Below are positions 1,831 through 22,900 of a DNA stretch of 64,000 nt, piece by piece. Position numbers and translations under genes: made by a program. Origin of the DNA: Ignavibacteriota bacterium (GTDB lineage Bacteria > Bacteroidota > Ignavibacteria > Tepidaquicellales > OLB5); the NCBI GenBank assembly GCA_003820375.1, contig RPQH01000001.1, forward strand, positions 36,874 through 100,873, in the 5' to 3' direction. The notes under the pieces were generated by a model. It searched no databases, was not told the origin of the DNA, and saw nothing but the letters and a program-made list of their open reading frames with translations. Numbering within the stretch: the first letter of the stretch is position 1; each line of letters opens with the position of its first letter.

Positions 1831-2799
1831 TTGAATAAATATAAACTCCCAAAATTAAAACCTGAATATACTGAGCTAGTTGATAGTATTATAAAGGATT
1901 TAGAAAACAACATAATACCTTGGCGAAAACCATGGTTTAGCAAACTCCCAGTAAATTTCAAAACCAAGAAGCAATATAGAGGAATTAATATTTTATTACT
2001 TCTTTCAGCTGCCCATAAAAAAGGTTTTGAATCACATTATTGGTTAACAGCAAACCAGGCATTTCACCTTGGTGGTAAGATAAAAAGCATTGAAGTAAAT
2101 AAAAATTCCAATATAATTTTAGCAAAGTGGAAACATAAGATAGTTAAAGATGAGCGAGGAAGACCCCAAAAGAAGATGTGGTTGATGATGCGATCTCATA
2201 AAATTTATAATTTAGAGCAAACAACTGGGGTAAGAAATAAGTATTATGATGGAAACACTCTATCATTATTTAACATAAATCAACAAGCTGAAGATGTTAT
2301 AAAATCATACAGAAATCCGCCTGTTTTTTCTTATTCACCAGATAGAGCATATTACATGCCATGTTTAGACCTTATAGGAATTCCAAAACTCGATCAATTC
2401 TATAGTCCAGAAGAGTATTATAGTACTTATTTTCATGAACTTATTCACTCTACTGGACATAAAAAAAGGTTAAATAGAAGTCTTTTTGCTAAAGTAATTA
2501 AGTTTGGAGATGAAGAGTATGCTAAAGAAGAATTAGTAGCGGAACTTGGGGCTGCATTTTTATCCAGTCATTGTGATTTTTTCAGTAAGACATGTAAAAA
2601 TTCTGGAGCATATTTAAAATCCTGGTTAAAAGTATTAAAAAGTGATAAAACATTTTTATTAAGTGCTACAAAGCATGCACAATTTGCTTGTGACTACATA
2701 ATTGAAGGGAAACCTCAAGAACAAGAAGATGTCAAAGATGAAGAGGAACAAAAAGGTTTGAAAGATGTAAAATTTACACAAGATATTGTCTTTAAGTAA
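1831..2799 (+). CDS. ardC: ArdC-like antirestriction protein (N-terminal ssDNA-binding DUF1738-type domain + zincin metallopeptidase)
   Basis: N-terminus IIPWRKPW...YRGINILLL...HYWLTANQA..GGKIK is typical of the ArdC N-domain. C-terminus has FHELIHSTGH (HExxH). The start codon is TTG. Confidence 0.75.
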   Translation: MNKYKLPKLKPEYTELVDSIIKDLENNIIPWRKPWFSKLPVNFKTKKQYRGINILLLLSAAHKKGFESHYWLTANQAFHLGGKIKSIEVNKNSNIILAKWKHKIVKDERGRPQKKMWLMMRSHKIYNLEQTTGVRNKYYDGNTLSLFNINQQAEDVIKSYRNPPVFSYSPDRAYYMPCLDLIGIPKLDQFYSPEEYYSTYFHELIHSTGHKKRLNRSLFAKVIKFGDEEYAKEELVAELGAAFLSSHCDFFSKTCKNSGAYLKSWLKVLKSDKTFLLSATKHAQFACDYIIEGKPQEQEDVKDEEEQKGLKDVKFTQDIVFK

Positions 2800-2984
2800 T
2801 AAAATAAGCTATAATTATGGAAAGGCATATTTTAATTTATTTATCATCTTTACTAATAATATATATACACGTGTTTATTTTCTTTTTTAAGAAAAATATA
2901 TTAATATCTTTAATAGCAAATCAACATATTTTATTTCTTCCTGGATCTTTCTGGTTATAAACAGATTGAAATAATACTAATCAT

Positions 2985-4535
2985 ATGCCTGAAAAAAATA
3001 TTCTAATAACAATGTGCGGTTTGACCCCGCAAGTGGTTTCTGAAACCTTGTATGCTTTTTCTGTAAGGGAAAATATTTCTATTGATGAGCTTTATATTCT
3101 TACTACAATAGAAGGGAAAAAATATGTTGATGGAGGTGAATTGTATGTCAGAGGCGACATTACTAAAATACCTTCGTTGGAAGATGAAATTAATAGGATG
3201 TGCCAATTATATAATGTAAGATTGCCAAATATAAAAGTTTTAACCGTAAAAGATGAAAACTTTGAAATTAATGATATCGATTCACCGGAGGCAAATGAGT
3301 TATTTCCTAATTTTATAATGAATTTAATTGGAGATTTATCAGCTCAAAAGAATGTGCGTCTCCACTGTTCATTATCAGGCGGCAGAAAAACTATGAGTGT
3401 AGCTATTGGTTTTGCAATATCTATGTTTGGGGGAGAAAATGACACTCTGACTCACGTACTGACAAGCAGAGAGTTTGAATTATCAAGCAAGTATTTTCCG
3501 GAAAACAAAGAAGAAGATGAGCAGTTAAAGATAAACTATTTTCCTTTTTTAAAGCTGAGAGACTGGATAGGGCAGGATGTATTAGAGAGGAACTACTCTA
3601 GTATTATTAAAAAAGCACAGAATAACATTGATATTATTTCCGGCAATTATGGAAAAAAATATGGATTGATTGGTGAATCAATGGCAATTAAAAAAGTTTA
3701 TAGACAGATAGAAATATATTCCAGGTTAACTAGTAATGTACTGATTACAGGTGAGAAAGGAACAGGGAAAAAAATTATTGCTAAAGCTTTACATAACTCT
3801 GCAAATAAAACAGAAGATTCTTTTATCCACATTAAATGCATTGATATAAAGGATACAGAAATTTCTGAACTGTTATGCAGTAGATTAACTAACACAACAT
3901 TGTTTTTTGAGGAAGTAGATTTATTATCTATAGGCTCACAAAATTATCTTTTAAATTTTATAAAAGCCAACGAAAATAATAACATAAGAATAATAACAGC
4001 TTGCAGCGCTGGAATTGAAAATGAATACAGTTGGGGTGGTTTTAATGCCGAGTTGCATAGATTATTAAATCAGTTGAACATATATATTCCACCATTAAAT
4101 GATAGAAGAGAAGATGTCTTACAAATTATAAAATATTACACTGAAAGGTATAATACAGAATTAAACCAACATATTAAATTTATTGGCATCGAATTATTGA
4201 GAATGCTTTTAGTTGCTAATTATAGAGGCGGTAATGTGCTTAACATAAGAAAATGGCTTAAAAAAATGATTGATGGGACAGGAAAGAGTAAATTAACAGT
4301 TATTGATCTAGATAAACTGGATTATGTTGAAAAAACTCACGTAATGTGGGGATTTCAAAAAATGGATAAAGATGTATCTAGTGAAGAAAAACTACTTCCA
4401 ATAAACGAGCTTGAGAGATTATTTTTTAGCCATGTAATTAGGAAGTTTGATAATGATTTCAGAGTTATTGCTAAAATTTTAAAACTATCAGATGAAAGTG
4501 TGAAAAATATTAGAGGTAGATTTTCAAATTCATAA
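2985..4535 (+). CDS. CARF (NE0113/CARF7-type) - AAA+ (sigma54-activator-like, GAFTGA loop absent) - Fis-type HTH regulator
   Basis: N-terminus ILITMCGLTPQVVSETLYAF and SLSGGRKTMS match the cas_NE0113 CARF signature. Walker A is GEKGTGKKIIAKALH and Walker B is TLFFEEVDLL. NQLNIYIPPLNDRREDVLQII is the bEBP sensor/R-finger block. The C-terminal part VIAKILKLSDESVKNIRGRF is an HTH. No GAFTGA lies between Walker A and B. Confidence 0.75.
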   Translation: MPEKNILITMCGLTPQVVSETLYAFSVRENISIDELYILTTIEGKKYVDGGELYVRGDITKIPSLEDEINRMCQLYNVRLPNIKVLTVKDENFEINDIDSPEANELFPNFIMNLIGDLSAQKNVRLHCSLSGGRKTMSVAIGFAISMFGGENDTLTHVLTSREFELSSKYFPENKEEDEQLKINYFPFLKLRDWIGQDVLERNYSSIIKKAQNNIDIISGNYGKKYGLIGESMAIKKVYRQIEIYSRLTSNVLITGEKGTGKKIIAKALHNSANKTEDSFIHIKCIDIKDTEISELLCSRLTNTTLFFEEVDLLSIGSQNYLLNFIKANENNNIRIITACSAGIENEYSWGGFNAELHRLLNQLNIYIPPLNDRREDVLQIIKYYTERYNTELNQHIKFIGIELLRMLLVANYRGGNVLNIRKWLKKMIDGTGKSKLTVIDLDKLDYVEKTHVMWGFQKMDKDVSSEEKLLPINELERLFFSHVIRKFDNDFRVIAKILKLSDESVKNIRGRFSNS

Positions 4536-4571
4536 AAAAACAATAAATTTATTAACAATTACCGCATAATT

Positions 4572-7163
4572 ATGCTGACACTAATTAATTACAATTCTAC
4601 AGCATCAGAAAACTTAAAACTAGAAGAAAATTTAGGTGAAAAAGTTACTCTGATTAACTATGAGAGTCTTTTTGAGTTTATTAATGCTGCCAAAGAATAT
4701 TCAGGCGTTGTGGAAGGTGTTATGTTTAACAGTAAAGATTTTATACTGAATGAAAGGGATGTAAAAATAATATTTGAAAATACACCTGCATTTTCATACG
4801 ATTTTATAAATGATGATAGTATAAATTTGAAACCTGTTCTAAATACAGGTATAATGCGAGAGCCCGTTGATATAGAATTAAATAAAATTGTTGATAAACT
4901 GGAGTTCATTCTAGTTAAAAATAAAATAACAAATACATATAGCAGCTCAGAATTCAGAGATGATTCATCAATAGTAATAAAAACATTAAAATCTCAGTTT
5001 GGAATATATTATACAGCGCAATTTGCTATTGAATTAATTTCTGTCTTTTTACCGGACCAAACTTTGGGAGTTAATGATTTATCAGACAGGAACTGGCATT
5101 TATCGCTTCTGAAATTCTTTTACAAGTTGTATCCTGAAGCTATTATAAGCATAAAATATGAAACTATAACTATAAACAACCTAAAGCAGGTAAAAGTATT
5201 TATTATAATATCATTATCTGGAAAGATAAAGGAAAAAACTATTTTGGAAGCCGGAAAAATAAAAGAATCTTTATTGGAGTTTTTCTATTCTTCCGGTGTA
5301 TATTTGGTATATGATTTAAGAATTGTAAAATCTAAAGAAGAGCTTGAAGCAGCAGTATATTTTATTGATTTACCTTTAAATATTACATCATATAAGTTAA
5401 AAATAAAAGAGAGTGTAAGTTTATTTTACAATGATATTATTAGTTCTGATAAAAAAGTTGAAAAAGAATTGTTAAATGCGCTATTTTTTACTAACCAATT
5501 ACTATATAGCTATGATAAATTGTTATCCATATTAACTGAACAACATGATGGCTCTGCATTTGTAATACATCTAAAGCCATTTACTCCGGAAAGTTATATA
5601 AAATCTCTGTCAAACGAGATTAAATATTTGAATAATCCTGAAATTAGAGAAACAGACAAAATAAATATTCTCGATAAACTTGAGTCTTCAATGTTTTTCA
5701 AAACAGTAGTTTTAATTTACAATAAACAGAATGAAGTGAGCAATACTTTAAAACATAATATAAATTCTGACTTATTCAATGCTGATCCTGGTTTTGAAAT
5801 AAATGAAGGTATAAATAACCCTGCTGATATTTTCAATTGTTTAATAAACAATTCAGAAATACCTGAAGAATTTGCAAATATATTTACAGCAGTAGAAGCC
5901 GCTTCATGTTTCCATTTACCATTCAGAACAAACTTTAAGCTTTCCGGTGTACAAAGTGAATTCAGCCGCTTTTCTTTTGTTCCGGCAGAACTTAGTACTG
6001 AAGGTACATTACTTGGCATCAAAAGAAGAGGGGAGCTTGTTATGGACATTAGGATAAAAGATAAAGATTTAAACAGTCACACATATATTATTGGACAGAC
6101 CGGTACCGGGAAATCAACGATGCTATATACAATGATTATGGACCAGATTGAAAATGATAAAGGAGTTCTAATTATTGATCCCAATCTGGATCTTTGTAAT
6201 AAAATTGCTGAGAATTTACCAGCACATAGGAAAAACGATATAATAATATTTGACCCGACTGAGGAAAAGTATCAACATAGAATAAACTTGCTTGAATATG
6301 ACATCAATTACCCTGCACAAAAATCCTTTATAATAAATGAACAGCTAAAAATTATAAATGATATTTATAATTTGAATATAACTGGCGGTCCTGTTTTCGA
6401 GCTTTATTTTACAAATGCGCTTCTTGCAGTTATGGAGAACAAGGGCAGTATTTTTGATGTTGTAAATTTCTTTTTATACACTGATAAACGAAAAGAAATA
6501 CTTGAAAACTGCAGCAATGTTGATGTTATAAACTTCTTTAACAATGCAAATCAAACAACAGGGGAGATATCATTTACAAACATTCTGTTTTATATAATCA
6601 GCAAGTTTACTCCTTATACTTTAAATGAATTTTTCAAGAATGTGTTTAACACATGTACAAGTGATATTAATTTCAGAGATATAATTGATAATAAAAAGAT
6701 ATTTTTAGCCAGGCTTCCTAAAGGCATTTTAGGTGATAAAGCAGCTCACTTCATGGGTATTATACTGGTAAACCGGTTTGTAATGGCAGCTCTTTCAAGA
6801 GCTAATATTCATGAGAAGGACAGACGGCAATTCTTTATGTATATAGATGAGTTTCAAAATTTTGTTTCTACCGATTCAGCAAATGCTTTAGCTGAAGCTA
6901 GAAAATATGGTTTAAGTATGATTCTTGCAAATCAAACAACTGCTCAAATTCCAAAAGAATTAAAAGAAATTATTATTGGAAATGTTGGCAATACTATATT
7001 CTTCAGAGCAGGAAGCCATGAGCTTTCAACAATTATGCCTTATATATTTACGGATTTTAAGGAAGATGATGTGTTGTATTTGCCCAATTACCAATGCATA
7101 GCCAAGCTGTTAGTTGATGGTAAACCTACAAAGCCATTTGTGTTTGAGACAGCAGTTATGTGA
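4572..7163 (+). CDS. FtsK/HerA/TraD-superfamily P-loop ATPase with a ~480-aa N-terminal region of unknown fold
   Basis: HTYIIGQTGTGKST (Walker A), FFMYIDEFQNF (Walker B) and ARKYGLSMILANQTTAQIP are typical of DUF87/HerA/TraD-like translocase ATPases. No N-terminal TM helices, so it is not a classical coupling protein. Confidence 0.65.
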   Translation: MLTLINYNSTASENLKLEENLGEKVTLINYESLFEFINAAKEYSGVVEGVMFNSKDFILNERDVKIIFENTPAFSYDFINDDSINLKPVLNTGIMREPVDIELNKIVDKLEFILVKNKITNTYSSSEFRDDSSIVIKTLKSQFGIYYTAQFAIELISVFLPDQTLGVNDLSDRNWHLSLLKFFYKLYPEAIISIKYETITINNLKQVKVFIIISLSGKIKEKTILEAGKIKESLLEFFYSSGVYLVYDLRIVKSKEELEAAVYFIDLPLNITSYKLKIKESVSLFYNDIISSDKKVEKELLNALFFTNQLLYSYDKLLSILTEQHDGSAFVIHLKPFTPESYIKSLSNEIKYLNNPEIRETDKINILDKLESSMFFKTVVLIYNKQNEVSNTLKHNINSDLFNADPGFEINEGINNPADIFNCLINNSEIPEEFANIFTAVEAASCFHLPFRTNFKLSGVQSEFSRFSFVPAELSTEGTLLGIKRRGELVMDIRIKDKDLNSHTYIIGQTGTGKSTMLYTMIMDQIENDKGVLIIDPNLDLCNKIAENLPAHRKNDIIIFDPTEEKYQHRINLLEYDINYPAQKSFIINEQLKIINDIYNLNITGGPVFELYFTNALLAVMENKGSIFDVVNFFLYTDKRKEILENCSNVDVINFFNNANQTTGEISFTNILFYIISKFTPYTLNEFFKNVFNTCTSDINFRDIIDNKKIFLARLPKGILGDKAAHFMGIILVNRFVMAALSRANIHEKDRRQFFMYIDEFQNFVSTDSANALAEARKYGLSMILANQTTAQIPKELKEIIIGNVGNTIFFRAGSHELSTIMPYIFTDFKEDDVLYLPNYQCIAKLLVDGKPTKPFVFETAVM

Positions 7164-7184: not shown

Positions 7185-7559
7185 TCAATCTTCTATTAAT
7201 TGTTGATGTTTTTGTCTCAGAGTTTTAGCTAATTCATTTGCTGACTCTAGTGTTTTTGAAATTTTTTTACCTTCTAAACCTGCAAATATAGCAAAAGGCA
7301 AAAATACAACAATACCTAAAATTAATGCTAATGCATCATCTGATTGTCCTAATAGTGGTATAACATCTGGTATAAGATCTAATGGGCTTATAATATATAA
7401 AACTGAAATACCGGTTAAAGCAAATAAAGATTTACTGAAAACTTTATATAAAAAAGCTTTAATACCGCTGTCTTTCAAATTAAACAATATTAGCAGAGTA
7501 ATTATGATAATAGTAAAACAAATTAATATCCATTTACTAAATTCCCAAAAAGATTCCAT
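7185..7559 (-). CDS. DUF1232 (YkvA-like) small membrane protein
   Basis: SPLDLIPDVIPLLGQSDDALAL motif plus hydrophobic helices. Confidence 0.6.
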   Translation of the reverse strand: MESFWEFSKWILICFTIIIITLLILFNLKDSGIKAFLYKVFSKSLFALTGISVLYIISPLDLIPDVIPLLGQSDDALALILGIVVFLPFAIFAGLEGKKISKTLESANELAKTLRQKHQQLIED

Positions 7560-7731: not shown

Positions 7732-7870
7732 CTCTTTTTCACTTCAAAATTTGTAAAAAATTCTTTATTTGGTAACTATTTACCTCTAAGTTATAATAAA
7801 ATAAGGCATCTGTCAAAACAGGCACTAAAAAAAGTTAAGTCTTAATAGAATAATGTATTTAACCAAAAAA
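7732..7870. repeat. Copy A of a ~140-bp direct repeat (partner at 36132-36271), just downstream of the last type III gene
   Basis: By-eye alignment: ctctttttcacYtcaaaatt..aactatttacctctaagttataataaaataaggcatctgtcaRaacaggcactaaaaaaagttaagtct.. Identity roughly 85-90%. Confidence 0.8.
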
Positions 7871-12156: not shown

Positions 12157-13698
12157 TTAATTAATTTTCTGTTTGCTCTTCTTTATTGCTTTTCTTAAAT
12201 TAGCAAAAAATGTAAGGAAATATGTCTTATATAAAGTAAATTTAAATTCATTATCATTTTCAGGTTCATAATAATTATACAAAGTTTCATTTTCAGCTTT
12301 CAAAACCTCTATTTCTTTACTCATTATAAAATCCCACAGATTGGATTTATCTGTTTTGCATTCTTTTAATTGCTCCATAGCTATATCTTTAAGTTCTTTT
12401 ATATAATTTTCCCTGAAGTTACTTTCACTATTTGCCGATTTAATAAATGATTCCAATCTTGAAACTAAAGATCCTTTTATTCTTTGATTCAGTTTCCCAT
12501 TATTTTTTCCTTCTATTGTTCTTACATCTTCAAGTGCTTTTAACTTTATTGTTCTGAGTGAATATTCCCGAATAGATTTTTTTATAATTTTTTGAGTGAT
12601 TTCAGGTATAACTTCTTTTTTTAATTCCTGTTCTGAAATCTTTGTTTCAGATGGTGAAAAAGGCTTCACAGTTGATATATCATTTTTTTGTAGTCCAAAT
12701 ATCACTTGACCAAATCCTTCAGCGCGTCGTTCTCCTATTCCATTTAACTGAAGTTCCTGAAGTTTATGCATATTCAATTCATTATCGGGTTTTAAGAGGA
12801 AACAAGATCCTGCTTTAAAACAGGTTTCTGATGGCTTCTTTAATCTCCATACTGACACATAATTTTCAATAAAATCTTTCTTTAAGTATGCTTTTTCAAT
12901 TTTTATATTTAAACCAATTTCTTCTAAATATTCTCTTAATGATTTTATATCTGTAGTTGAAAAGCCATTTTTATTGTATATAATTACATCTGATAAAAAA
13001 GTTAATGAAATCTCAGCTCTATCTTCTATATTTGTTTTTAATTCTTCAATAATATCACAAATTGAAAACTCAATTTCACCATACTGAGAATTTCTTGATC
13101 TGCCAATATAAAAATTGCTTTCATTTAAAAATATTTTTGCTATTTCTTCCAGGTTTCCTTTTTCATCTGAACTAATTTCACCTTTGAAAACCTGATCTTT
13201 ATCAATTGATTCATAGTTAAATATAATACCTTTTTTACTGCTGCCTGTGTCTTTATCTCTTTCATGATGGAAATTTATGCTTTTACTCACAGATGTCTTT
13301 TTGAAGGTCGTACTTTCTATAACTCCAAATCCTCTAATCATTTTTAATGGAACAACTGGTGTCGAATATAGTAATTCAATTGTTTCAGATTGTTTATTCT
13401 TTTTTTCTTTTATGGAAAAGGGAATAGGAATAAATTCTATATCTTCATTATATTCATTTTTTTGTGTAATGTAAGCATTCGAAAATCTCAACTTGCCTTT
13501 TAGAAACCAATCAAAGAAAATATCATTTTCATGTGCTTTACTATTTAGTTTGTTTTTTGCAATATATCTTCCTGCAAGCATACCAAGAACAGATGTGCCG
13601 GGAATATATTCATATGTAGTTACTGTGTTTCTTTCTCCGGATGACTTTGCAATTAGTAAAGGAGCTTTAGCTTTAATTTGATACTTCAGTTTGTACAT
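12157..13698 (-). CDS. csx10: Csx10 (Cas5-like RAMP) with a C-terminal all-helical extension that may replace a separate Cas11
   Basis: YEYIPGTSVLGMLAGRYI and LNGIGERRAEGFGQVIFG are Csx10-type motifs. The last ~170 aa are K/E-rich and helical, and no separate small-subunit gene is present. Confidence 0.6.
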   Translation of the reverse strand: MYKLKYQIKAKAPLLIAKSSGERNTVTTYEYIPGTSVLGMLAGRYIAKNKLNSKAHENDIFFDWFLKGKLRFSNAYITQKNEYNEDIEFIPIPFSIKEKKNKQSETIELLYSTPVVPLKMIRGFGVIESTTFKKTSVSKSINFHHERDKDTGSSKKGIIFNYESIDKDQVFKGEISSDEKGNLEEIAKIFLNESNFYIGRSRNSQYGEIEFSICDIIEELKTNIEDRAEISLTFLSDVIIYNKNGFSTTDIKSLREYLEEIGLNIKIEKAYLKKDFIENYVSVWRLKKPSETCFKAGSCFLLKPDNELNMHKLQELQLNGIGERRAEGFGQVIFGLQKNDISTVKPFSPSETKISEQELKKEVIPEITQKIIKKSIREYSLRTIKLKALEDVRTIEGKNNGKLNQRIKGSLVSRLESFIKSANSESNFRENYIKELKDIAMEQLKECKTDKSNLWDFIMSKEIEVLKAENETLYNYYEPENDNEFKFTLYKTYFLTFFANLRKAIKKSKQKIN

Positions 13699-14360
13699 TT
13701 TTTTTCAATATTTTTTAGATAATGATCATTTAAATTTATTTTTCCAAATAATATACATTCAATTTCACCAAATCCTCTGTTCCTTTTGGTGCCCATACTT
13801 CTCAAATTTGCACATGCTAATGATAATAATTCTATATAATCTTCTTCATTATTTTCAATACTAATTTCACAATAGAACTTATTATTCTTATTACAAACTC
13901 TGATTGTTCTTAATGAATTATTTTTTGCCTTACTATCTTCTATTGCTGTTTGATGCCTGATTGTTGTGAAATATTTCTCTACTTCTTCTCTTGGGATAAT
14001 TTCCGGATATTCTTTAATAAAGTACTTTAGGTATTTAAAATTTTCCTTGTAATCTTGGATATATAAGTTAGAAAAATAAACATAAGCTGGTTCTTTCTGT
14101 CCGGGACTGCCGAAAATTTTGTCGATTATTCCTGCATTATAAGTTATCTTGATGCCTGCTGAAATTAGCATATCAACTACCTCTTCAGCAGAATCCTTCA
14201 GTAATCCTTTTATCCTTTTTGCAGGTATATATGGTATTCCAGCTTCATCGAAATGGATATCACTGTCTATTATAGCGCCGCCTGTTTCACCGGAACCAAT
14301 TAATGTATCAGATTTTAGTGTGATTTCAAGTTTATATTTTTCCATTTTATTCAAGTTCAA
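13686..14360 (-). CDS. cas7: Cas7 (Csm3/Cmr4 family RAMP)
   Basis: LIGSGETGGAIIDSDIHFDEAGIPYIPAKRIKGLLKD and MGTKRNRGFGEIEC. Overlaps both neighbouring genes by 13-14 nt. Confidence 0.75.
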   Translation of the reverse strand: MNLNKMEKYKLEITLKSDTLIGSGETGGAIIDSDIHFDEAGIPYIPAKRIKGLLKDSAEEVVDMLISAGIKITYNAGIIDKIFGSPGQKEPAYVYFSNLYIQDYKENFKYLKYFIKEYPEIIPREEVEKYFTTIRHQTAIEDSKAKNNSLRTIRVCNKNNKFYCEISIENNEEDYIELLSLACANLRSMGTKRNRGFGEIECILFGKINLNDHYLKNIEKKCTN

Positions 14361-15840
14361 ATTTTGGGTAAAGTTCTGTGAGTTCTATCATGTCAAAATA
14401 TGGAGTTACATTATTTTGAAATAATGATTTAGAGTAATTATAATCTATATGGTAATTTGGTAGAGTTATACCTTTTGATTTTAACTGATTTAAAAATTCA
14501 TTCCCAATTTCTTTTTCACAGGTTAATACCTCTCTTAATTCTTTTATCTTAGATGAAGATAGAATTTGTTTTTCACTGGAGTCTTTCTTTATAAGTAAGC
14601 GAGTATTTTCTATTATTTTATCAAAATCATATATATCATTTTTATTCCTGCTCAATCTATAAGGTCTTATTAGCAAACATTTATCTTTAATCTTAAAATA
14701 TTTGTCTCTTATATCTTCAATAGGTGCAGATATCCCGGCATAGGCAATATGGAAATCTATCCAGGAACCTTCACTTCTACCTATATTCTTTCTAACAGAT
14801 TTAGCATTACCACATAACTCTTCTGCCAGGATGTAACCTTTATAGAAGGGGTATTTTTGTTTTATTATTGCTACGCCTGCACAAGCTGTTAATTTGCTTT
14901 CAATTTCAAATTTTTCAATAAATTTTTTTGCAAAATATATTCCTAACCTTCCATCGCAAACAAAGGTAATATCATCTCCACCAAGAATTATAGGTCTTAT
15001 TGGAATGAGTTTTTTATTATCCCAGCTTATTTCTTTTTCAATTTTCTCTTTTTCCTGTATTATAGTCTCTAATAAAAACTTAAAGGATTCTGTAACAGAA
15101 TCTTCTAAAATCTTAGATAGGTCTTTTATTTCTTTAAGGGTTTTACGTTTACCAAATTCTTCGCCAACTCCATTCCCATCAATATGCACAATAGCTATAT
15201 GGCTGTCTTCACCTTTGCTGCTGCCTAAATCCTCAAATTCCAGAGGAAAATCTAATTTACCTAAAACATCGTTAAAATCTCCAATAAATTTCAAATTAGC
15301 AGGTTCATAATAATTCAATTTTGTCTTTGCAATGGATGATATATAGTCTCCTTCTTCGCCTTCATCATGCTTTTCTTCGTACCATGATTCAGCGGAATAA
15401 CCGGTTCTTGGGCATTCTTCATTTATTCCATGAGAGGGGAGGGTAATAACCGGAACATATTTACCTTTATTCTCATCTAGTTTATTAAAAAGAGCTTCTT
15501 TAAACTCATTAAACTTTTCAGTATCATCTAAATCAATTGTTCCATCACTAATTGCACAAGCAATTGATACTCCGGGTGCTTTTATTAATAAGTCTCTTGT
15601 AAAGTTTTTTATAAATTTAATCGCTTCGCTTTTATCTTCAAAAAAAAGTAAAGCGTTCCCTCCACCTATATAACCAACTTTATCACAAATATATGTTCCA
15701 TCTTTATCAGCTTCTGTGATTTCTTCATATATATTGCTGATTATATAAGATGCACCTAGATTTTCCTTCAGCTTACTGCTCCCAAATACATATTGCTGAA
15801 TGGAGGTTGTGTCAAGTAATACGCCGTAATATTTTTTCAT
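14347..15840 (-). CDS. cas10: Compact Cas10 (497 aa) lacking an HD domain, with an intact GGDD cyclase palm
   Basis: HIAIVHIDGNGVGEEF (palm metal-binding strand) and PIILGGDDITFVCDG (GGDD). N-terminal GYIGGGNALLFF resembles a degenerate first palm. No H-D motif at the N-terminus. Confidence 0.75.
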   Translation of the reverse strand: MKKYYGVLLDTTSIQQYVFGSSKLKENLGASYIISNIYEEITEADKDGTYICDKVGYIGGGNALLFFEDKSEAIKFIKNFTRDLLIKAPGVSIACAISDGTIDLDDTEKFNEFKEALFNKLDENKGKYVPVITLPSHGINEECPRTGYSAESWYEEKHDEGEEGDYISSIAKTKLNYYEPANLKFIGDFNDVLGKLDFPLEFEDLGSSKGEDSHIAIVHIDGNGVGEEFGKRKTLKEIKDLSKILEDSVTESFKFLLETIIQEKEKIEKEISWDNKKLIPIRPIILGGDDITFVCDGRLGIYFAKKFIEKFEIESKLTACAGVAIIKQKYPFYKGYILAEELCGNAKSVRKNIGRSEGSWIDFHIAYAGISAPIEDIRDKYFKIKDKCLLIRPYRLSRNKNDIYDFDKIIENTRLLIKKDSSEKQILSSSKIKELREVLTCEKEIGNEFLNQLKSKGITLPNYHIDYNYSKSLFQNNVTPYFDMIELTELYPKFELE

Positions 15841-15841
15841 T

Positions 15842-17110
15842 TTATTTGATAAATTCTTTAATTTTTTTTAAGAAAATTTCTTTTCTTAGATCTTTTCTAC
15901 CCAAAACTAATATTTTTTTGCCCACACCAAGATCTGTTTCAAGTTCTTCTCCTAATAACTTTATATCAGATACACCTGATTCATGATGAGATATTTCTTC
16001 TTCCATAGTAGTTATTAAAATACTTTTTGCTTCTGAACCGCCAATTTGCTGGACTCTATGAATAACTTCAAAAGCCTTGCTCTTACATTCCGACTTATTT
16101 GAACTTGTTGTACAAGAAATTCCTATTAATTGGTATCCATTAATCCAAGCGACATCTAGTTGGAATCGTTCTGTGATGCCCTCTTTCTTCATTTTCCAAT
16201 CATGATAAACGTTCTTTGAGTTATCTTTTAGTAATTTATAAATAAACATTTCCAGCATAACTCCAGAAAAGAATTCTATTATTTCCTGTAACCTGGGATT
16301 ATATTCTAAACCTGTATTGAATTCTCCATTTGTTTTGAAAAAACGAATGTTGGGAGGTAATGTATTATTAATTTCTAATAGCTTTCCTTCTATTGTATAA
16401 AACTTAAATATTTCTTTTTTACTATTGAATGTTTCTTCACATACTAATTTAGAGTTTGCCATAAATGAATAAAAAAAATATTTTAAACTTTTATTTTCTT
16501 TTTTGTCACTTATTATAAAAAGTTTATCGGTATTATAACTTACCCACTCGCCATATAAATTTGCTGCTTTAAAAAAAATTTCTCGGTCATTATTTAGTCT
16601 TTTATAACTATGCAAAGAAATTAAATCTTTTAGTTCTATATCAATTTCTTTTCTTAAATCAATATAATCTAAATCTTTATCAGGATTAATTAATGCAAAT
16701 GTTCTTGCAGACAGATATGAGTAGCTTTTTTCTTTTACTTCCAAACTATTTATCCATTCATAAACAAAAATACCCATAACCTTTGTACCGCCGGTATAAT
16801 TGAGATGAATTCTATTTCCTAATTCTCTCTTTAAGTTATCGTTTAAATCATTTTTTAAAGTTTGTGCATTTTCTACATCTGTTAGGGGAATTAAATTAAT
16901 CTCACCTTTAAAATTTTTTGCAGTTTCATTTAGCACGCATTTAATGTTATCTGCATAATCTTTAGTGGATCTTTGATGATCTTCGGCTGAATACAACAGC
17001 CAAACATTTTTCAATTCGGGATTATTATCTATAATATACTTCGCTGTTACATAGTTGGGCAGGGGATTGGTGCCGATTAATAAGATTAGGTCAGTAAAGT
17101 TAAATCCCAT
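15842..17110 (-). CDS. CARF + PD-(D/E)xK-like nuclease fold protein (Card1/Can2, DUF1887-like)
   Basis: N-terminal DLILLIGTNPLPNYV Rossmann-like CARF start. C-terminal ERFQLDVAWINGYQLIGISCTTSSNKSECKSKAFEV..IGGSEAKSILIT resembles the DUF1887 nuclease core. First gene of the cas operon. Confidence 0.65.
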   Translation of the reverse strand: MGFNFTDLILLIGTNPLPNYVTAKYIIDNNPELKNVWLLYSAEDHQRSTKDYADNIKCVLNETAKNFKGEINLIPLTDVENAQTLKNDLNDNLKRELGNRIHLNYTGGTKVMGIFVYEWINSLEVKEKSYSYLSARTFALINPDKDLDYIDLRKEIDIELKDLISLHSYKRLNNDREIFFKAANLYGEWVSYNTDKLFIISDKKENKSLKYFFYSFMANSKLVCEETFNSKKEIFKFYTIEGKLLEINNTLPPNIRFFKTNGEFNTGLEYNPRLQEIIEFFSGVMLEMFIYKLLKDNSKNVYHDWKMKKEGITERFQLDVAWINGYQLIGISCTTSSNKSECKSKAFEVIHRVQQIGGSEAKSILITTMEEEISHHESGVSDIKLLGEELETDLGVGKKILVLGRKDLRKEIFLKKIKEFIK

Positions 17111-17483
17111 AAAATAAAAAATATTATTTGAATTTATGAATTGAAATTAATTACTTGGATGACTCTTTTGTAGTGTGCAGTTTATTTGTACATAATCAGA
17201 TTGATTTGCACTTTAGCTTCGGTTGTCATGTATTCCGGATTAATAACGAGTCTTCTTGTTGCTGATTTTTGAAAGTTATGGAATACAAAATGAGGGATAT
17301 AACTTTCGGCTATGACGCAATATATTATATAAATAAAGGAAAATCAACAACATATTTATGGTTATGGGTGAATTTTTTGATACGCAAATAAAATAAAGAA
17401 GTTTAAAAATCCCGTCTCTGAGTTTTAATAAAATAAAATTATTTCGAAAAATTGAATTAAGTTTTTCCGTAAGGGGGAGCTTC

Positions 17484-17799
17484 GTTTCGACAATCGGCTT
17501 ACGCCTCATTCATATTTTAACGCCGAAGTGATTTATAACAATTCAGAGGTCGCTGAGTTTCAATCGGCTTTCGCCTCATTCATATTTTAACCGTATCAAA
17601 GATACTCAAGGACAATGGCATAATGTTTCAATCGGCCTAAGCCTCATTCATATTTTAACGACTAACACCCCCAATTGTTATTAAATTAAATGAAGTTTCA
17701 ATCGGCCTAAGCCTCATTCATATTTTAACAACACGTCTATCGGATTACGAGATGTAGCGTTCGAGTTTCAATCGGCCTAAGCCTCATTTATATTTTAAC
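17484..17799 (-). CRISPR. CRISPR array 1: 5 repeats, 33-35 nt spacers
   Basis: Repeats start at 17484 (degenerate, 38 nt, gtttcGACaatcgg), 17557, 17625, 17695 and 17765. Plus-strand consensus is GTTTCAATCGGCCTAAGCCTCATTCATATTTTAAC. The reverse complement ends in ATTGAAAC, so the array is called minus-strand. The degenerate terminal repeat is at the low-coordinate end. Confidence 0.95.
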
Positions 17800-17881
17800 A
17801 GTACCCCTATTAACAGCTATATTTTAAAGGGGTTATAAGGGTATTTGCGAGCCTCGTTCTTTTTTACTGTCAAACATATGT

Positions 17882-17910
17882 AATTTAACCTGTTTTTTTA
17901 GTTTTGTCAA
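17882..17910 (-). promoter_or_regulatory. Putative leader promoter of array 1 (TTGACA-N17-TAAATT on the minus strand)
   Basis: Plus-strand tgtcaa at 17905-17910 and aattta at 17882-17887 with a 17-nt spacer. It lies ~80 nt upstream of the first repeat. The same architecture occurs beside array 4. Confidence 0.4.
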
Positions 17911-18373
17911 TACTTTTTAAGAGCTAAGTATATTAAAAATAAGGTGCCCCGAGGCATAAAGACTTACAAAAAAAGTTAAGTACCTTTATTTTTTAACACT
18001 TAGTCATAATTGGCTCCTTTTCTAAAATCTGGTTAGTAAACTTCATATCCTTTGTTTCCAGGTATCTCTATTTTTGCACCTAATCCTATCGCCTTATCAT
18101 AACAAGCATTGCAAATTGGGTAAATTCTAACTAAATCAGAATTCTTAGCAATCTTAACCAGACCTGAAATTATCGTTTTTAGTTTCTTTTTTACTAAACT
18201 TAATATTCCCTTTTATAGAAAATTGGATATAAATATAAAAAATACAAAGGTTTAACTTTAGTTAATCATTGGATATTACTTAATAATATATTAATTTTAT
18301 AAGAACTTAATCCTAATAATTTCAAAAATGACAGTATATTCTTATTAAGTAATTCCTAAATGTAATCAAAAAA

Positions 18374-21300
18374 ATGGAAAATAAATCAAAAAAGAAAATC
18401 TTAATATTTGATTATTATGAAAATATATTAAGATATTTAATGAAAAAATTAGGAGATATAAGGATACGATATGAGGTAATTTTTATAAAAATGAATAACG
18501 GAAAATCTGTATTAAAACAATTACAGGATCATGTACCCTCATTTGTTTTTTATCAGCCTTTTGATTTTTCTAGTATACTTGAACCCGATATGCAATTTCT
18601 TGAGAAATATATTCTTCCTTTTTTAAAAAATAAAAATTGTAATGTCTTATTTTACTATTATATTTATAATAAAAGTAATACGAGTGATATTGCGAATAAT
18701 GTTTATAATAAATTTCAATCTTTCATTCAGCAAAATGTTCATAAAAAAAACAATTCTAATATAAATTTTATTAATACGGCAGATTTCTACGTAAAGCCAA
18801 ATAAATCCAGCTCCAATTTAAAAACCGGGGAAAGTTATTTGGACTATCAACTTAAACGATTAGACTATCTCTATAAACCACTTAAAGAGAAGAATGATAA
18901 TGATAGACAAATAAATGATGAAGATTTGGTTGATGATATACACAATCCAATTAAAAATGATTATGCAGCTAATTTAGATAATGAATTACTTGATGAGTAT
19001 ACATCATTTATTTCAGATTTAATAACTGATTATATTTTACACTGTGATTATATAGATAATAAAGTAGAAGGATATTTCAATTTAGATAATTTAAAGTTTT
19101 TAAAATTTAAAAATCTTTATATTGATAAACTTAAAGACATACAAGTATTTAATGGTGATGAATATAATACTATAAAGTTATCTTTAGGGAAACTAACATT
19201 TTATGACCAAATGGGAAATCTATTGTTAGATATACCATATAAGAAATATTATAATAATTTAAATGCTTATGTAAAAGAACATAAATTATTAAAATATTTA
19301 TTTTCGGAAAATATAAATAGATATGAAAAAGGTAAAAATTATATATTTTATGAATTTTATTACTACAATGATGCAAATAAAATCACTTTAAAAATTAATA
19401 ATTGTTTTTATCGGATAAATTCTAAGACAAAAAATTTAGAAAATGCCGATGATATATTAAAAAAATGGCTGCGAATCTTATTTTCAGAAGTATATTACTT
19501 AAACTTCTATAACAAAGATCAAAATATATGGAATGAAATAAATATAAATGGAAATATAGTCAATAGCATTATTCAGCAAAGCAGTTCATTATATGGTGAA
19601 TCCCCATTTTATTTTGTTTTCTTTTTTGAAGAACTAGATATTGCCGGACAAAAAGGTACTGTAAACTATTGTTTATATAGTGATTCAGTACAAATTAATG
19701 CTCTACGTGGGAATCGTATTCCAATTAATGAAAATAATATCGAAGAATTTACAGATAGAATATATTCAGATATTCGTCCATTGATAATTTCAAGAGCTCA
19801 AGAATCGATATTCCCATTAATTAACAATCAAATCAGAAAATTAGCTGTTCAATCAGCAGTTTCATCAATCTTTGCTAGAAATTATTCTCACAACATTGGA
19901 GCTCACGTAGATAATAGAACTTATTATAATGATATAATTTTCAACTTAAATAATCTATATGGTGCAAAAGCAATAAATGATAACAGAAAACTAATTGATG
20001 TATGGATTCATTTAATGAAAGATTTAATGAAAAATTATTCAATTAAAAGGAATGAATTCCTTGCAGATTATCAGCACCCACCTAAAAATCTATTGCTCTA
20101 CGAAGATATTATACTTCCCTTTGTTGAAAATATGCTATTAATGAATAATATAGCATCAAGTGAAGATATAATGTATTTTAAAAATGGAAATTGCATTGAA
20201 AATAAGTTAAAAATAAAAGTAAATATAAACGGCAATGAGTTAAGTGCGCAATATCCTGATATGAGATGTATAGTAGATTGTGATGAATTGATAGAATATC
20301 CTGATCATTTTCCATATGTGTATTGTTATAAAGGGCTAAGTAATCCAAACAATTGCGAAATTGAAGATTTAACTAATATTTTAAAAACCAAAATCATACT
20401 GGGTAATGATATTGAAATAAGTATTACTAATGAACATGCTTTTTTCTCTATCTTAGAAAATATTATTAGAAACAGCTCAAAACATAATAAGAAAATATTA
20501 GAAGATGAATCAGAGTTACTAATCCAGATAAATGTTTATGATACAGATTTAGTAGATAATAAAAAGGATAATAATTTTTATCACGTAATTGTATATGATA
20601 ATATATCTGAAGCAAAATTATGTGATATATGGGAATTTAAAAGAACTATAGAAAGCTCAATAATTAATATTGAAACTGCCCAACTTGAACGAAAACAGCT
20701 TGGTATTAAAGATATGAAAATTAATGCTCATTTATTATGCTCCTCAGAAGAAATAAATGATGATATTTTAAAAAAATCTTTAGAAGTTGTTATTATAGAT
20801 AGATCAATCAAAGGTCCTGCAGAAATAATTTTTAATCCACTTCAATATCGAAATTATGATGAATTATTGAAAGATATAAAAGAACATTACTACGGAGATT
20901 TTGATATAGATAATTATAAATTTAGTTTTGGATACAAATTTAAACTACAGAAATCTAAAAAAATAATGTGGGTAGTTGGGAATGATTTAAAAATAGATGG
21001 AAAAGTAATAGACGAATTTCAGGAAAAAGGTGTTACCATTTTCTCCTATCAGGAAGATTTATCCAGTAACTTATCCAAAACAATAGCTTCGTATCAATTT
21101 ATTGTTTTCGAGAGAGAATATTTTAAGAATTTCAGCGATGAAGATTATATATCATTTGAAAGATGTTTAACTAAGCTGCCTTTCAGATTACTATTGAATA
21201 GTGAAGATGATGATTTTAATGAATATTTGAGTAAACTAATAAATTCAAGAAGAATACAACTGGTCAAAAATAAAATTCATTTTTTGGATTCTAACAATGA

Positions 21301-22132: not shown

Positions 22133-22137
22133 TATAT

Positions 22138-22776
22138 ATGAGAAATATAATTTTCATTACAAGAGATTACGAAAATCAATACACTATTAAAGATGAATAT
22201 ACACACTTATGGAAAGCTGACGGTGAATCCAGTTTCTTTTCAATTGATTTAAACGATGATAAGATTTTAGTAATAAATGGACCAAAATTGTTTAAAACTT
22301 TGGATATTATGAAGAAAATTGAAACTTTATCTCACTATATTCCTAGGAATGAGGAAACAGGATTATTATATCATAGCCACACGCTTAATAATAGTCATTT
22401 AAATTTATCTTTGAAATTCTTAATGAAATTTGGTCATAGTGATGAATACTTTTATAATGGAATATATATACCTTTAGCTGAAAATAAAAACAATAAAGAA
22501 GTTGTTGTAAACTATTTTAATCAAATATGGGATATGTTTGACCCTGCATCTGAAATGGAATGTAAATTGAATGTACTATATAAATGTCTTGTTCCAGTGA
22601 AAGATACAAAGGAAATTGAGAGACTACCTGGCTGGAAAAAAATAAAAAATATTAAAATATCAAATAATGAAGAAGAAATATCAATAATTGATTACTTAAG
22701 AATCAATTTTACAAAAGATTCATTGGAATACGATGTTTTACTTACAAAACTTAGAGATATTGTTTTAAAGAATTAA
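22138..22776 (+). CDS. hypothetical protein (212 aa), 5 nt downstream of the kinase-like gene
   Basis: Tight operonic spacing. No convincing domain motif. Confidence 0.45.
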   Translation: MRNIIFITRDYENQYTIKDEYTHLWKADGESSFFSIDLNDDKILVINGPKLFKTLDIMKKIETLSHYIPRNEETGLLYHSHTLNNSHLNLSLKFLMKFGHSDEYFYNGIYIPLAENKNNKEVVVNYFNQIWDMFDPASEMECKLNVLYKCLVPVKDTKEIERLPGWKKIKNIKISNNEEEISIIDYLRINFTKDSLEYDVLLTKLRDIVLKN

Positions 22777-22900
22777 AATCTAACAAATGAGCTAAATTTA
22801 AAAAGTAATAAAATTGCTAGTTTTTGAACCCATTCGAAATTCATGAATAATAATATATATTAATAGAAAAGCTATTTTTAAATATTTAAATCAATCGAAA

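Follow-up and report, generated by a model that had tools for sequence, protein, structure and literature searches.

A rare CARF5/NE0113 regulator with a degenerate bEBP-type AAA+ domain, encoded next to a HerA/FtsK-superfamily ATPase in a type III CRISPR island

The regulator, the ATPase and their type III island

The stretch of DNA analysed here, 64,000 nucleotides long and referred to as the window, comes from an Ignavibacteria-like genome and carries a type III CRISPR island. Within this island, two open reading frames lie side by side as the original prediction had described them: a regulator of 516 aa (2985-4535, + strand), made up of a CARF5/NE0113 sensor, a degenerate bEBP-type AAA+ domain and a probable Fis-type HTH, and a soluble ATPase of 863 aa (4572-7163, + strand), in which an orphan N-terminal region precedes a P-loop domain of the T4CP/HerA-FtsK superfamily. 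All of the motifs quoted for the two proteins are present, namely CGLTPQVVSETLYAF, SGGRKTMS and ISELLCSRLTNTTLFFEEVD in the regulator and GQTGTGKST and YIDEFQNF in the ATPase. The genes are separated by a 36-nt gap (4536-4571) that holds neither a terminator-like site nor a -24/-12 match; since they also share a strand, co-transcription is likely. The proposal to look for sigma-54 promoters in the gap and the island led nowhere, as the -24/-12 scan returned 20 matches versus 21 expected, thus no enrichment, with none intergenic in the island and none suitably placed. Likewise, a search for an operator, a target promoter or a shared motif for the regulator identified none, and no repeated operator-like motif common to the regulator promoter and the cas promoters was found.

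The island encodes further components of type III signalling, all on the minus strand. The presumed source of cOA is a Cas10-like subunit of 497 aa (14347-15840), which matches Cas10-Cmr2_palm2 and is predicted to be cyclase-competent from its GGDD motif ('ILGGDDITF' in the translation). A Card1/Can2-like CARF nuclease (15842-17110; CARF_Card1, E 1e-10, and a Card1_endonuc match) is the second predicted cOA receptor of the island, and a Csx3 fusion protein with a Crn3-type ring nuclease domain is encoded at 31541-32470 (Cas_csx3, E 2.5e-24). The presence of a GGDD Cas10, a Card1-like nuclease and Csx3 in one locus fits cA4 signalling.

An intact CARF sensor on a degenerate AAA+ domain

The CARF domain of the regulator (residues ~4-220; 2994-3644, +) had been called NE0113-type, and the profiles agree: Cas_NE0113 matches residues 14-177 (E 1.6e-21), TIGR02584 clears its cutoff of 80.65 with 118.6 bits, and PADLOC CARF5 matches with an E of 3.7e-43. 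Both signature motifs, GLTPQ..ET and CSLSGGRKTMS, are intact, and the columns G12, T14, P15, Q16, E20, T21, C128, S129, G132, G133, R134, K135, M137 and S138 are invariant across nine aligned family members. By sequence, the CARF part is closest to NE0113 proteins of 340-370 aa, whose C-terminal domain is weakly similar to SarA/MarR in a profile search. A PDB profile search with the CARF returned the small ring nuclease 7z55, Cad1 and Crn1 Sso2081, so that the closest CARFs of solved structure are Cad1 and ring nucleases that bind cA4; TIGR02584 is listed by NCBIfam as a ring nuclease. Membership of this family suggests a cOA ligand for the regulator.

The AAA+ domain (residues ~225-445; 3657-4319, +) was delimited by Pfam matches and by alignment with eight canonical bEBPs. 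The predicted AAA+ core is borne out by a full match to Sigma54_activ_2 (PF14532; residues 229-371, E 5e-25), the canonical PF00158 aligning at profile positions 1-66 of 168 only. The absence of GAFTGA, first read from the sequence alone, persists in the alignment, where a 17-residue deletion takes out the entire L1/GAFTGA hairpin; a second deletion of 10 residues, new beyond the original prediction, corresponds to the pre-sensor-I (L2) loop. Walker A is intact (GEKGTGKK). Elsewhere the catalytic elements are substituted: Walker B carries D to E, sensor I reads ACS for ATN, both Arg fingers are lost (FREDLYYRLN to FNAELHRLLN) and sensor II reads GNVLNIRK for GNVRELEN. The best PDB match is VpsR (7v2b, E 3.6e-20), in a continuous alignment over residues 225-430. 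The evidence for the predicted HTH is weaker: Pfam gives no HTH match in the regulator, residues ~470-510 (4392-4514, +) align with bEBP C-terminal HTHs, and the full-length NCBIfam models DhaR and LuxO align through residues ~501-502, which together point to a probable Fis-type HTH.

Three groups of known regulators resemble this protein in part. RtcR and the RtcR-like PspF1/PspF2 proteins likewise join a CARF sensor, an NtrC-type AAA+ domain and a C-terminal HTH (PMC4012209), the layout originally noted for the regulator, in which the HTH is probable. The PADLOC models RtcR_PspF2, RtcR and RtcR_PspF1 match it at residues ~225-399 only, that is, in the AAA+ part. RtcR, however, is a genuine sigma-54 activator with a divergent CARF type and no CRISPR link, whereas the present regulator carries a CARF5/NE0113 domain, lacks GAFTGA, the L2 loop and the catalytic residues, and is encoded within a type III island. 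VpsR also lacks GAFTGA and has a non-consensus Walker B; it is without ATPase activity, activates sigma-70 RNAP and responds to the cyclic nucleotide c-di-GMP (PMC6158489). It shares both losses with the regulator but has a REC sensor in place of the N-terminal CARF, and the L1 deletion of the regulator is larger than that of VpsR, with L2 gone too. Other atypical sigma-70-dependent bEBPs are TyrR, HupR, NtrX, PhhR and HsfA. Among CARF factors, Csa3a reportedly switches on both CRISPR-Cas genes and genes of DNA repair (PMC5587795), which offers a precedent for herA/nurA control by such a factor. Csa3/NE0113 CARF-wHTH factors couple a CARF to DNA binding in CRISPR loci, as predicted for the regulator; they differ in having a winged helix instead of a probable Fis-type domain, and no AAA+ domain between sensor and DNA-binding domain. 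Csa3 is reported to bind cA4 (PMC8699464, PMC8844856).

The regulator has no full-length homologue in a search of 5.8 billion proteins, and being a singleton without orthologues it cannot draw on conservation to back a function. The only other CARF5-bEBP fusion found, at locus L152 (metagenome contig Ga0078972_1008092, 1874-3625; Cas_NE0113 E 1e-34, Sigma54_activat and HTH), adjoins a CRISPR-like repeat and a Cas6-like gene. Unlike the regulator, it keeps GAFTGA and the pre-sensor-I loop (PF00158 match 3-164 of 168). The two are 27% identical overall and 25% identical in the AAA+ domain, a level of similarity seen with ordinary bEBPs as well; the fusions may therefore have independent origins.

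The ATPase and its signalling cluster

The P-loop of the ATPase places it near the TrwB/VirD4/TraD coupling proteins and HerA/FtsK: Walker A lies at residues 508-516, Walker B at D759/E760, and TrwB_AAD_bind, TraG-D_C and DUF87 each match inside residues 490-820, with further matches to VirD4-like models. Scores against conjugation equivalogs all fall far under the cutoffs (for example 42 versus 250 bits). Unlike type IV coupling proteins, the ATPase has no TM helix (maximum KD19 1.54 versus 3.18 in CPR relatives) and no T4SS or relaxase context. HerA/NurA are co-evolving accessory genes of type III systems (PMC6546367), but the ATPase gives no match to the HerA HAS-barrel, and NurA is absent. 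Its best PADLOC match is Mad8 of the MADS defence system (E 4.8e-17, residues 478-820 against profile positions 3-260 of 314), a short protein lacking the 480-aa N-terminus; the other seven proteins scanned with PADLOC matched no other mad model, apart from a weak mad8 hit (E 0.0023) in the P-loop region of the regulator.

The ATPase domain (residues ~435-860; 5874-7151, +) has at least 561 DUF8128-type relatives at 33-41% identity, mostly from Patescibacteria; P0122 is 36% identical. Relatives on plasmids bear the annotation 'type IV secretion system DNA-binding domain-containing protein'; 80 of 90 are on non-mobilizable plasmids, and the one inspected has CHAT/TPR genes as neighbours. What sets the ATPase apart from the DUF8128-ATPase family is its N-terminal ~370 aa, which bear no relation to DUF8128. 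Residues 1-372 (4572-5687, +) have no Pfam match, and the AlphaFold model of the N-terminal region has a pLDDT of 33. The original prediction of a 480-aa N-terminus of unknown nature holds in that HMMER, run exhaustively over 1.84 billion representatives, found a single relative of residues 1-480; it does not hold for residues 373-484 (5688-6023, +), which resemble the C-terminal part of DUF8128, a CPR family (hhalign 85%, E 6e-6), so that the truly uncharacterised stretch is ~1-370.

Residues ~132/175 to 372 are shared only with P0123, encoded at locus L002, to which the ATPase is 33% identical across residues 175-604 (BLASTP). P0123 consists of a REC domain, the same middle region and the same ATPase domain. 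Residues 1-175 of the window ATPase show no REC similarity (hhalign 0.1%, versus 98.9% for the canonical REC of P0123). The neighbours of P0123 are homologues of three window genes, p1252, p212 and p662 (18374-24889), which lie 11 kb from the ATPase in the same island. The signature gene of the cluster, p1252 (18374-22132, +), has homologues in L002, L083 and L086. Its H-box-like FARNYSHNIGAHV, N-box-like SILENIIRNSSKHNK and G2-like LGIKDMKINA motifs tentatively suggest a histidine-kinase-like protein, a resemblance that falls short of statistical support: Pfam and PDB sequence searches gave no match, and the best fold matches of its AF2 model (pLDDT 47), namely the hybrid kinase ShkA, CheA P4 and REC domains, are non-significant. 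Its small conserved partner p212 (22138-22776, +) has weak homologues in L086 (E 1.6e-5) and L002, in each case after that of p1252. The third gene, p662 (22901-24889, +), encodes a double-REC protein (Pfam Response_reg at 286-386; hhalign REC 93% for residues 1-150 and 98% for 250-400) with an uncharacterised C-terminal domain bearing one RNxxxH motif, and its homologue is L002 13824-15989. The L002 cluster, fragmented by frameshifts, is REC/kinase-like and holds neither ArdC nor HNH; in L083, a TrwB/TraG-D_C ATPase lies 7 kb from the p1252 homologue. Most likely, the window ATPase belongs to this rare, uncharacterised signalling cluster and is not a dedicated CRISPR partner.

The pairing of regulator and ATPase, in turn, recurs in no other genome examined, the outcome that the original prediction had named as refuting it. 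No CARF regulator lies within 10 kb of the ATPase in 80 ATPase-family loci, nor does the ATPase family co-occur with NE0113 across 80 NE0113 loci. L002, the locus of the only close ATPase relative, has no CARF regulator, and the L152 fusion has no T4CP-like ATPase neighbour. The sole link between the two proteins is operon adjacency in one genome.

A sigma-54-independent reading and its rivals

The intact CARF, the loss of GAFTGA, the lack of a sigma-54 promoter signal and the GGDD Cas10 make a cOA-responsive, sigma-54-independent transcription factor reasonable, as one half of the original proposal had it. We tentatively favour, at somewhat less than even confidence, a regulator of this kind that is co-transcribed with, and possibly controls, an ATPase borrowed from the histidine-kinase-like/REC cluster. 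The CARF5/NE0113 domain would bind the Cas10 product, most likely cA4, and may slowly cleave it. Binding would alter the oligomeric state or geometry of the degenerate AAA+ domain, which probably still binds ATP but would neither hydrolyse it nor engage sigma-54, and this change would shift how the C-terminal HTH sits on DNA. The parallels are atypical bEBPs such as VpsR, TyrR and NtrX-type proteins, and the CARF-wHTH factor Csa3.

A rather less probable account is that the CRISPR-Cas locus itself is what the protein regulates, in the manner of Csa3 and with or without ring nuclease activity; it would tune cas, array or adaptation genes and/or degrade cA4, the ATPase being an incidental neighbour. 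NE0113-family CARF proteins with wHTH-like domains are predicted direct transcription regulators (PMC4012209), their C-terminal domain is weakly SarA/MarR-like, and the ring nuclease name of TIGR02584, the 7z55 and Sso2081 matches, the ATPase-free CRISPR setting of L152 and the missing synteny all fit. Against it stand the likely co-transcription with the ATPase, the position of the cas operon and arrays on the strand opposite to the pair, and the want of an operator-like motif joining the promoters; a Csx3-type ring nuclease, moreover, already exists in the island.

So degenerate an AAA+ domain might just as well be decaying, and a recent, lineage-specific domain shuffle with no regulatory role would suit a singleton with five catalytic elements lost, two loops deleted and an HTH that Pfam misses. 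We regard this as unlikely: the 516-aa frame is intact, conservation is complete in the CARF motifs and Walker A, the deletions are clean, in-frame and exactly at the sigma-54-contact loops, and functional atypical bEBPs such as VpsR show the same pattern of loss.

Slightly harder to uphold is that the pair is cargo of an integrated element, with the ATPase as its DNA translocase or coupling-type motor and the regulator as its type III sensor. An HNH endonuclease and an ArdC-N/MPTase-PolyVal protein are encoded immediately upstream of the regulator, two tyrosine integrases (36348-39024) are followed by chromosomal genes, GC is 0.23-0.31 across 1-26 kb versus 0.31-0.40 further right in the window, and the ATPase matches coupling-protein models. 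Yet the window contains no relaxase or T4SS genes, and the missing N-terminal TM helix, the low equivalog scores, the mostly non-mobilizable plasmid relatives and the ArdC- and HNH-free L002 cluster all argue otherwise. The other half of the original proposal, a cOA-activated, ATP-driven remodeller acting on the ATPase or another protein and not on DNA, is very improbable, for although Walker A is intact and Csx3-AAA and other sensor-AAA fusions have been proposed as allosterically controlled ATPases (PMC6546367), the AAA+ domain has lost both pore/contact loops and carries substitutions in Walker B Asp, sensor I, the Arg fingers and sensor II, and VpsR, the closest solved relative, is inactive as an ATPase.

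Returning to the transcription factor, we envision that it probably controls its own operon. Since the sister-locus ATPase carries a REC domain that is absent here, where a CARF regulator lies upstream, cOA-dependent transcription may have replaced phosphorylation as the input to the ATPase, a rewiring that a comparison of two loci, one of them frameshifted, would suggest. Taken together, the regulator is very rare, and the CRISPR alarm molecule is probably its signal for turning genes on or off independently of sigma-54.

CARF domain and AAA+ core of the regulator

The regulator gene (2985-4535, plus strand, 516 aa) and the ATPase gene that follows it (4572-7163, plus strand, 863 aa) are both real open reading frames, and the motifs that the original prediction quoted are present in their translations. 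The regulator begins with an NE0113-type CARF domain, as had been proposed: it scores 118.6 bits on TIGR02584 against a curated cutoff of 80.65, Cas_NE0113 (PF09623) matches residues 14-177 (E = 1.6e-21; 77.6 bits against a cutoff of 23), and PADLOC CARF5 models match at E = 3.7e-43, the CARF5 assignment being one by PADLOC model names. In an alignment with the eight nearest relatives, the columns of the pocket motifs after strand 1 (GLTPQ..ET) and strand 4 (CSLSGGRKTMS) are invariant; the pocket is intact, and the degeneracy that had been considered a possible objection is not seen. Searching the PDB with a profile of the CARF alignment retrieved the small ring nuclease 7z55, the CARF-deaminase Cad1 and Crn1/Sso2081, and the strand-4 motif aligns with GGRKGMS of 7z55 and GGYKTIS of Cad1. 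Judged by these features the domain looks functional, and on family grounds its ligand is most likely cA4, one of the cyclic oligoadenylates (cOA).

The AAA+ part is more degenerate than the original prediction recognised. The short sigma-54-interaction model PF14532 matches end to end in the central part of the protein, and the match to the canonical PF00158 is confined to profile positions 1-66 of 168. When aligned with eight canonical bacterial enhancer-binding proteins (bEBPs) taken from a homology search, the regulator lacks the whole L1 hairpin, including GAFTGA, through a 17-residue deletion, so that the reported absence of this loop stands under a proper alignment; a second deletion of 10 residues, which had escaped the first reading, removes the pre-sensor-I (L2) loop. 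Of the hydrolysis elements, Walker A (GEKGTGKK) is preserved. The Asp of Walker B is replaced by Glu (FFEEVD); sensor I has changed from ATN in bEBPs to ACS; the Arg-finger segment FREDLYYRLN has become FNAELHRLLN, so both arginines are lost; and sensor II has gone from GNVRELEN to GNVLNIRK, an Arg-to-Leu exchange. Among solved structures the closest relative is VpsR (7v2b, E = 3.6e-20), and its alignment with the regulator is continuous through the region in which canonical bEBPs fall into two pieces. VpsR is an atypical bEBP without GAFTGA and with a non-consensus Walker B; it is inactive as an ATPase and responds to c-di-GMP by activating sigma-70 RNA polymerase (PMC6158489). The bEBP-type AAA+ fold, the missing GAFTGA and the non-consensus Walker B are common to VpsR-type bEBPs and the regulator, whereas the N-terminal domain is a receiver (REC) domain in the former and CARF in the latter.

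The C-terminal HTH, also part of the original prediction, is weakly supported. Alignment with bEBP HTHs and full-length DhaR/LuxO models, which reach residue ~501, point to such a domain, presumably of the Fis type (HTH_8); the Pfam search gave no HTH match. A scan for sigma-54 (-24/-12) promoters, which had been proposed as a check, used TGGCAC-N5-TTGCW with up to 2 mismatches and returned 20 matches against 21.2 expected, that is, no enrichment, and none of the matches fell in the intergenic regions of the island within 1-25 kb. A search for operator-like k-mers or palindromes shared across the island's intergenic regions yielded AT-rich noise alone. The regulator differs from a sigma-54 activator in GAFTGA, in the L2 loop, in the completeness of the hydrolysis apparatus and in a -24/-12 target promoter.

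A CARF domain combined with an NtrC-type AAA+ domain and an HTH has been reported for RtcR and its RM-associated relatives (PMC4012209). The regulator is unlike RtcR: it scores 59.7 bits on NF038308 against a cutoff of 650, in the AAA+ region alone, and the PADLOC RtcR models cover only residues 225-399, with no RtcR-type CARF detected. The PADLOC CARF_AAA_HTH models, RtcR and RtcR_PspF types by name, likewise matched it solely in the AAA+ region.

The CARF-AAA+-HTH layout of RtcR, bEBPs without GAFTGA and CARF transcription factors are all already known. What is new is a CRISPR-type CARF5 domain joined to a bEBP scaffold stripped of its sigma-54 and hydrolysis features, in a type III island. 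In a search of 5.8 billion proteins the regulator found only itself at full length, followed by NE0113 proteins of 340-370 aa that match the CARF part and then by ordinary NtrC-type response regulators that match the AAA+-HTH part. A metagenome scan seeded with CARF motifs returned 490 relatives; among the 80 loci inspected, a single one, L152 (Ga0078972_1008092), extends CARF5 with an AAA+ domain. The CARF5-bEBP fusion has been seen once here and once elsewhere, there in GAFTGA-positive form. The L152 protein (1874-3625, plus strand, 583 aa) combines Cas_NE0113 (E = 1e-34), PF00158 (positions 3-164 of 168) and a C-terminal HTH, and both GAFTGA and the pre-sensor-I loop are intact. Its identity to the regulator is 27% across the whole protein and 25% within the AAA+ domain, no closer than that of ordinary bEBPs, and shared descent of the two fusions is therefore unsupported. 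Beside the L152 gene lie a CRISPR-like repeat with a 75-nt period (4145-4332) and a Cas6-like gene (5070-5870, minus strand), and the locus contains more TGGCAC-N5-TTGC-like matches than expected (8 against 2.7). A palindromic element of 44-45 nt recurs there at 3886-3990 and 6273-6370.

The ATPase and its relatives

The ATPase gene is separated from the regulator gene by 36 nt with no terminator-like site, and the two are probably co-transcribed. All recognisable domains of the protein lie inside residues 490-820: TrwB_AAD_bind (PF10412, 37.8 bits against 20.5), TraG-D_C (PF12696, 30.2 against 22) and DUF87 (28.1 against 23.2, residues 493-545 only). It differs from HerA, since PADLOC HerA models reach the P-loop alone, no HAS barrel was matched and there is no NurA. 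The coupling proteins VirD4, TraD and TrwB have an N-terminal transmembrane (TM) anchor, whereas the ATPase has no TM helix; its highest 19-residue Kyte-Doolittle mean is 1.54, with the peak within the ATPase domain. The best conjugation equivalog reaches 42 bits against a cutoff of 250, and the window holds no relaxase or T4SS genes. In the PADLOC defence library the best match is Mad8 of MADS (E = 4.8e-17); the seven other proteins scanned with PADLOC nearby include no further mad gene, apart from a weak mad8 match to the regulator's P-loop (E = 0.0023).

In species-representative genomes the P-loop domain (~435-860) has at least 561 relatives, which are 33-41% identical to it. Those listed are overwhelmingly from Patescibacteria and carry an N-terminal TM helix and a DUF8128 region, a label that comes from a precomputed Pfam call on the Patescibacteria-type relative P0122, was not reproduced by our own hmmscan, and was extended to the other loci through similarity to P0122. 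This TM-DUF8128 family is extremely common in Patescibacteria/CPR genomes (L003-L082, besides the larger set of matches). Plasmid-borne relatives, at 23-30% identity, bear the annotation [quoted passage not shown], and 80 of the 90 sit on plasmids that are non-mobilizable. In the one such locus inspected, on plasmid p131_1 of Bradyrhizobium sp. 131 (L087; NZ_CP064708.1, 143-158 kb), the relative of the ATPase domain sits among CHAT-domain/TPR genes and not in a T4SS, a context that hints at recruitment of this ATPase clade into conflict-type systems.

The N-terminal 480 residues had been described as unknown. A domain model search indeed found no known-domain match in them, but residues 373-484 show similarity to the last part of DUF8128; the match is limited to these residues, and a divergent DUF8128 spanning the entire N-terminus is not supported. 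An exhaustive HMMER search gave P0123 (GCA_016702925.1, locus L002) as the sole relative of residues 1-480. P0123 is 33% identical to the ATPase over residues 175-604, two neighbouring frameshifted fragments extend the match to the C-terminus, and a canonical REC domain (Pfam E = 2.3e-11) occupies the place of the first ~175 residues of the window ATPase. A pseudo-receiver at the N-terminus of the latter is not supported: compared with a REC profile by hhalign, it scores 0.1%, and P0123 scores 98.9%. AlphaFold2, run on residues 1-493 with the sole homologue as input, gave a pLDDT of 33.

The type III island and a putative kinase-like gene cluster

The island has genes for a GGDD-containing Cas10-like subunit, a Card1/Can2-like CARF nuclease, several RAMP proteins (one of them TIGR03986), a Csx3 fusion (31541-32470, minus strand, 309 aa) and, in its right part, a Cas6 fusion (27303-28832, minus strand, 509 aa) whose C-terminal half has no assigned domain. 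It contains at least four CRISPR arrays and, as read from its genes, can produce signal. A mini array of five repeats (17490-17800) lies directly upstream of the Card1-like gene. Read on the plus strand, its repeat differs at the 3' end, with ...CATATTTTAAC in place of ...CATGTAAAAAG; the variant also occurs sporadically in other arrays, for example at 25304, 30527 and 30834. A direct repeat of ~140 nt is present in three copies (7732-7869, 17911-17985 and 36132-36270), of which the first and third are 92% identical and the second, at 17.9 kb, is more diverged. These copies were considered as att sites of a type III cassette inserted between the ATPase and p1252, and this was rejected on their array-end positions: two copies lie just past the leader-proximal ends of arrays whose repeats finish in ...ATTGAAAC on the minus strand, and the repeats are thus leader-like. 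The 7.8-kb copy is an orphan ahead of a DUF1232 membrane-protein gene (7185-7559, minus strand). Two tandem tyrosine integrases (36348-39024, minus strand) mark the right edge of the CRISPR island, and past ~39 kb the genes are chromosomal, including those for T9SS-sorted proteins. GC content is 0.23-0.31 across 1-26 kb, below that further right in the window.

The locus of P0123 offers a second view of the genes around the ATPase. L002 has no CARF regulator; the ATPase is flanked on one side by homologues of p1252 and p212 and on the other by a PP2C phosphatase (12763-13779) and a homologue of p662 (13824-15989), with a 604-aa gene (16194-18008) that has no Pfam match and is REC-like by eye only. 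Frameshifts break up each of the ATPase, p1252 and p212 homologues of L002 (JADJDB010000001.1, 777-799 kb) into two or three ORFs, which could reflect real decay or errors in a long-read assembly of AT-rich sequence. In the window, p1252 (18374-22132), p212 (22138-22776) and p662 (22901-24889), all on the plus strand, lie 11 kb from the ATPase, beyond the minus-strand type III operon. A first metagenome scan found no relatives of p1252; protein searches found four, in a handful of metagenome contigs only. Besides the window gene, the family is represented at L002 5268-7845, L083 9263-12451 and L086 3959-6671. ABC-transporter genes flank the cluster in these three loci, and the 61-kb contig L083 carries, 7 kb upstream of its p1252 homologue, a soluble TrwB/TraG-D_C ATPase distinct from that of the window.

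The p1252 protein has motifs resembling the histidine-kinase H-box and the GHKL N and G2 boxes. In L002, L083 and L086 the H-box-like segment forms the C-terminus of a distinct upstream ORF, which adjoins the following one or overlaps it, and in the window both parts are fused, with an extra ~480 aa in front; the family C-terminus carries a conserved HRTY...ITSGGG...F-x-P motif. Pfam and PDB sequence/profile searches gave no match, and the top fold matches of a model (pLDDT 47) were the hybrid kinase ShkA, CheA-P4 and REC, all non-significant (E >= 0.008). For these reasons we call p1252 kinase-like only tentatively. In p662 a REC domain is found by Pfam (E = 6.7e-11) and a second by hhalign; p662 and its L002 homologue each have two REC domains and a single C-terminal RNxxxH (residue 516, or 678 in L002), and their C-termini do not align. 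The one RNxxxH motif makes the C-terminal region of p662 possibly reminiscent of HEPN RNases. We know of no prior description of a cluster of kinase-like, REC and T4CP-like ATPase genes; poorly supported as it is, it may be a conflict or signalling system of Ignavibacteria-like bacteria.

Pairing, alternative readings and meaning

The original prediction treated the regulator and the ATPase as a functional pair, and named absence of synteny elsewhere as evidence against it. No regulator relative was found within 10 kb at any of 80 ATPase-family loci, no ATPase relative within 6 kb at any of 80 NE0113 loci, and no T4CP-type ATPase beside L152, the sole other CARF5-bEBP fusion found; with L002 lacking the CARF regulator, the two genes are not syntenic in other loci, and the pairing is not supported, on a comparison that comes down to essentially one informative relative per gene.

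The regulator itself is most likely a cOA-sensing, sigma-54-independent transcription factor, which keeps the first half of the original "transcription factor or remodeller". Its catalytically dead AAA+ domain would serve as a ligand-controlled oligomerisation scaffold linking the CARF sensor to the HTH, and by analogy the protein would be VpsR-like in its AAA+ part and Csa3-like in its logic. It may control the operon that it probably shares with the ATPase. Known cOA outputs of type III systems are mostly enzymes or pores that the ligand activates directly, and to our knowledge the transcriptional ones have so far been Csa3-type CARF-wHTH factors. A precedent is the CARF factor Csa3a, reportedly tied to CRISPR-Cas and DNA repair genes in a paper that also names HerA and NurA (PMC5587795).

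A Csa3-like regulator of the CRISPR locus, with its adjacency to the ATPase incidental, is the closest rival, and one to which the synteny counts above speak directly; the short gap without a terminator-like site lies on the other side. Alternatively, both genes might be cargo of the island or of a mobile element. Directly upstream of the regulator, 253-2799 encodes an HNH endonuclease, a 329-aa protein and an anti-restriction-type ArdC-N + MPTase-PolyVal protein, neighbours that suggest a mobile-element ancestry of the island's left end. The regulator could also be a decaying fusion, a reading that has the two deletions in its AAA+ part on one side and the invariant pocket columns on the other. 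An active AAA+ remodeller is least likely, because the loops are deleted and the catalytic residues lost.

With the regulator taken as a cOA-dependent transcription factor, comparison of the window with L002 suggests a change of input: the ATPase would have lost its REC domain and gained a CARF regulator upstream, moving from phosphorylation to cOA-dependent transcription. The fullest form of this proposal couples type III signalling to a separate phosphorelay-type conflict system made of p1252, p212, p662 with its possible HEPN-like end and the soluble T4CP-like ATPase; the ATPase, without REC, would now stand under a new cA4-sensing, sigma-54-independent AAA+ factor, and Cas10 activation would reach a DNA/RNA-translocase effector arm. 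We regard this whole chain as improbable, a speculation well short of an even chance. If it were true, it would represent a transcriptional cOA output feeding a second defence system.

For annotation, present evidence does not justify carrying the regulator-ATPase "pair" forward as a CRISPR accessory module, and the comparison with L002 points to a rare cluster of kinase-like, REC and T4CP-like ATPase genes. The GAFTGA form in L152 and the stripped form in the window would be a natural pair for studying how a CARF signal passes through an AAA+ oligomer, and with CARF5 on a bEBP scaffold the cOA-dependent transcription factors would gain a second class.
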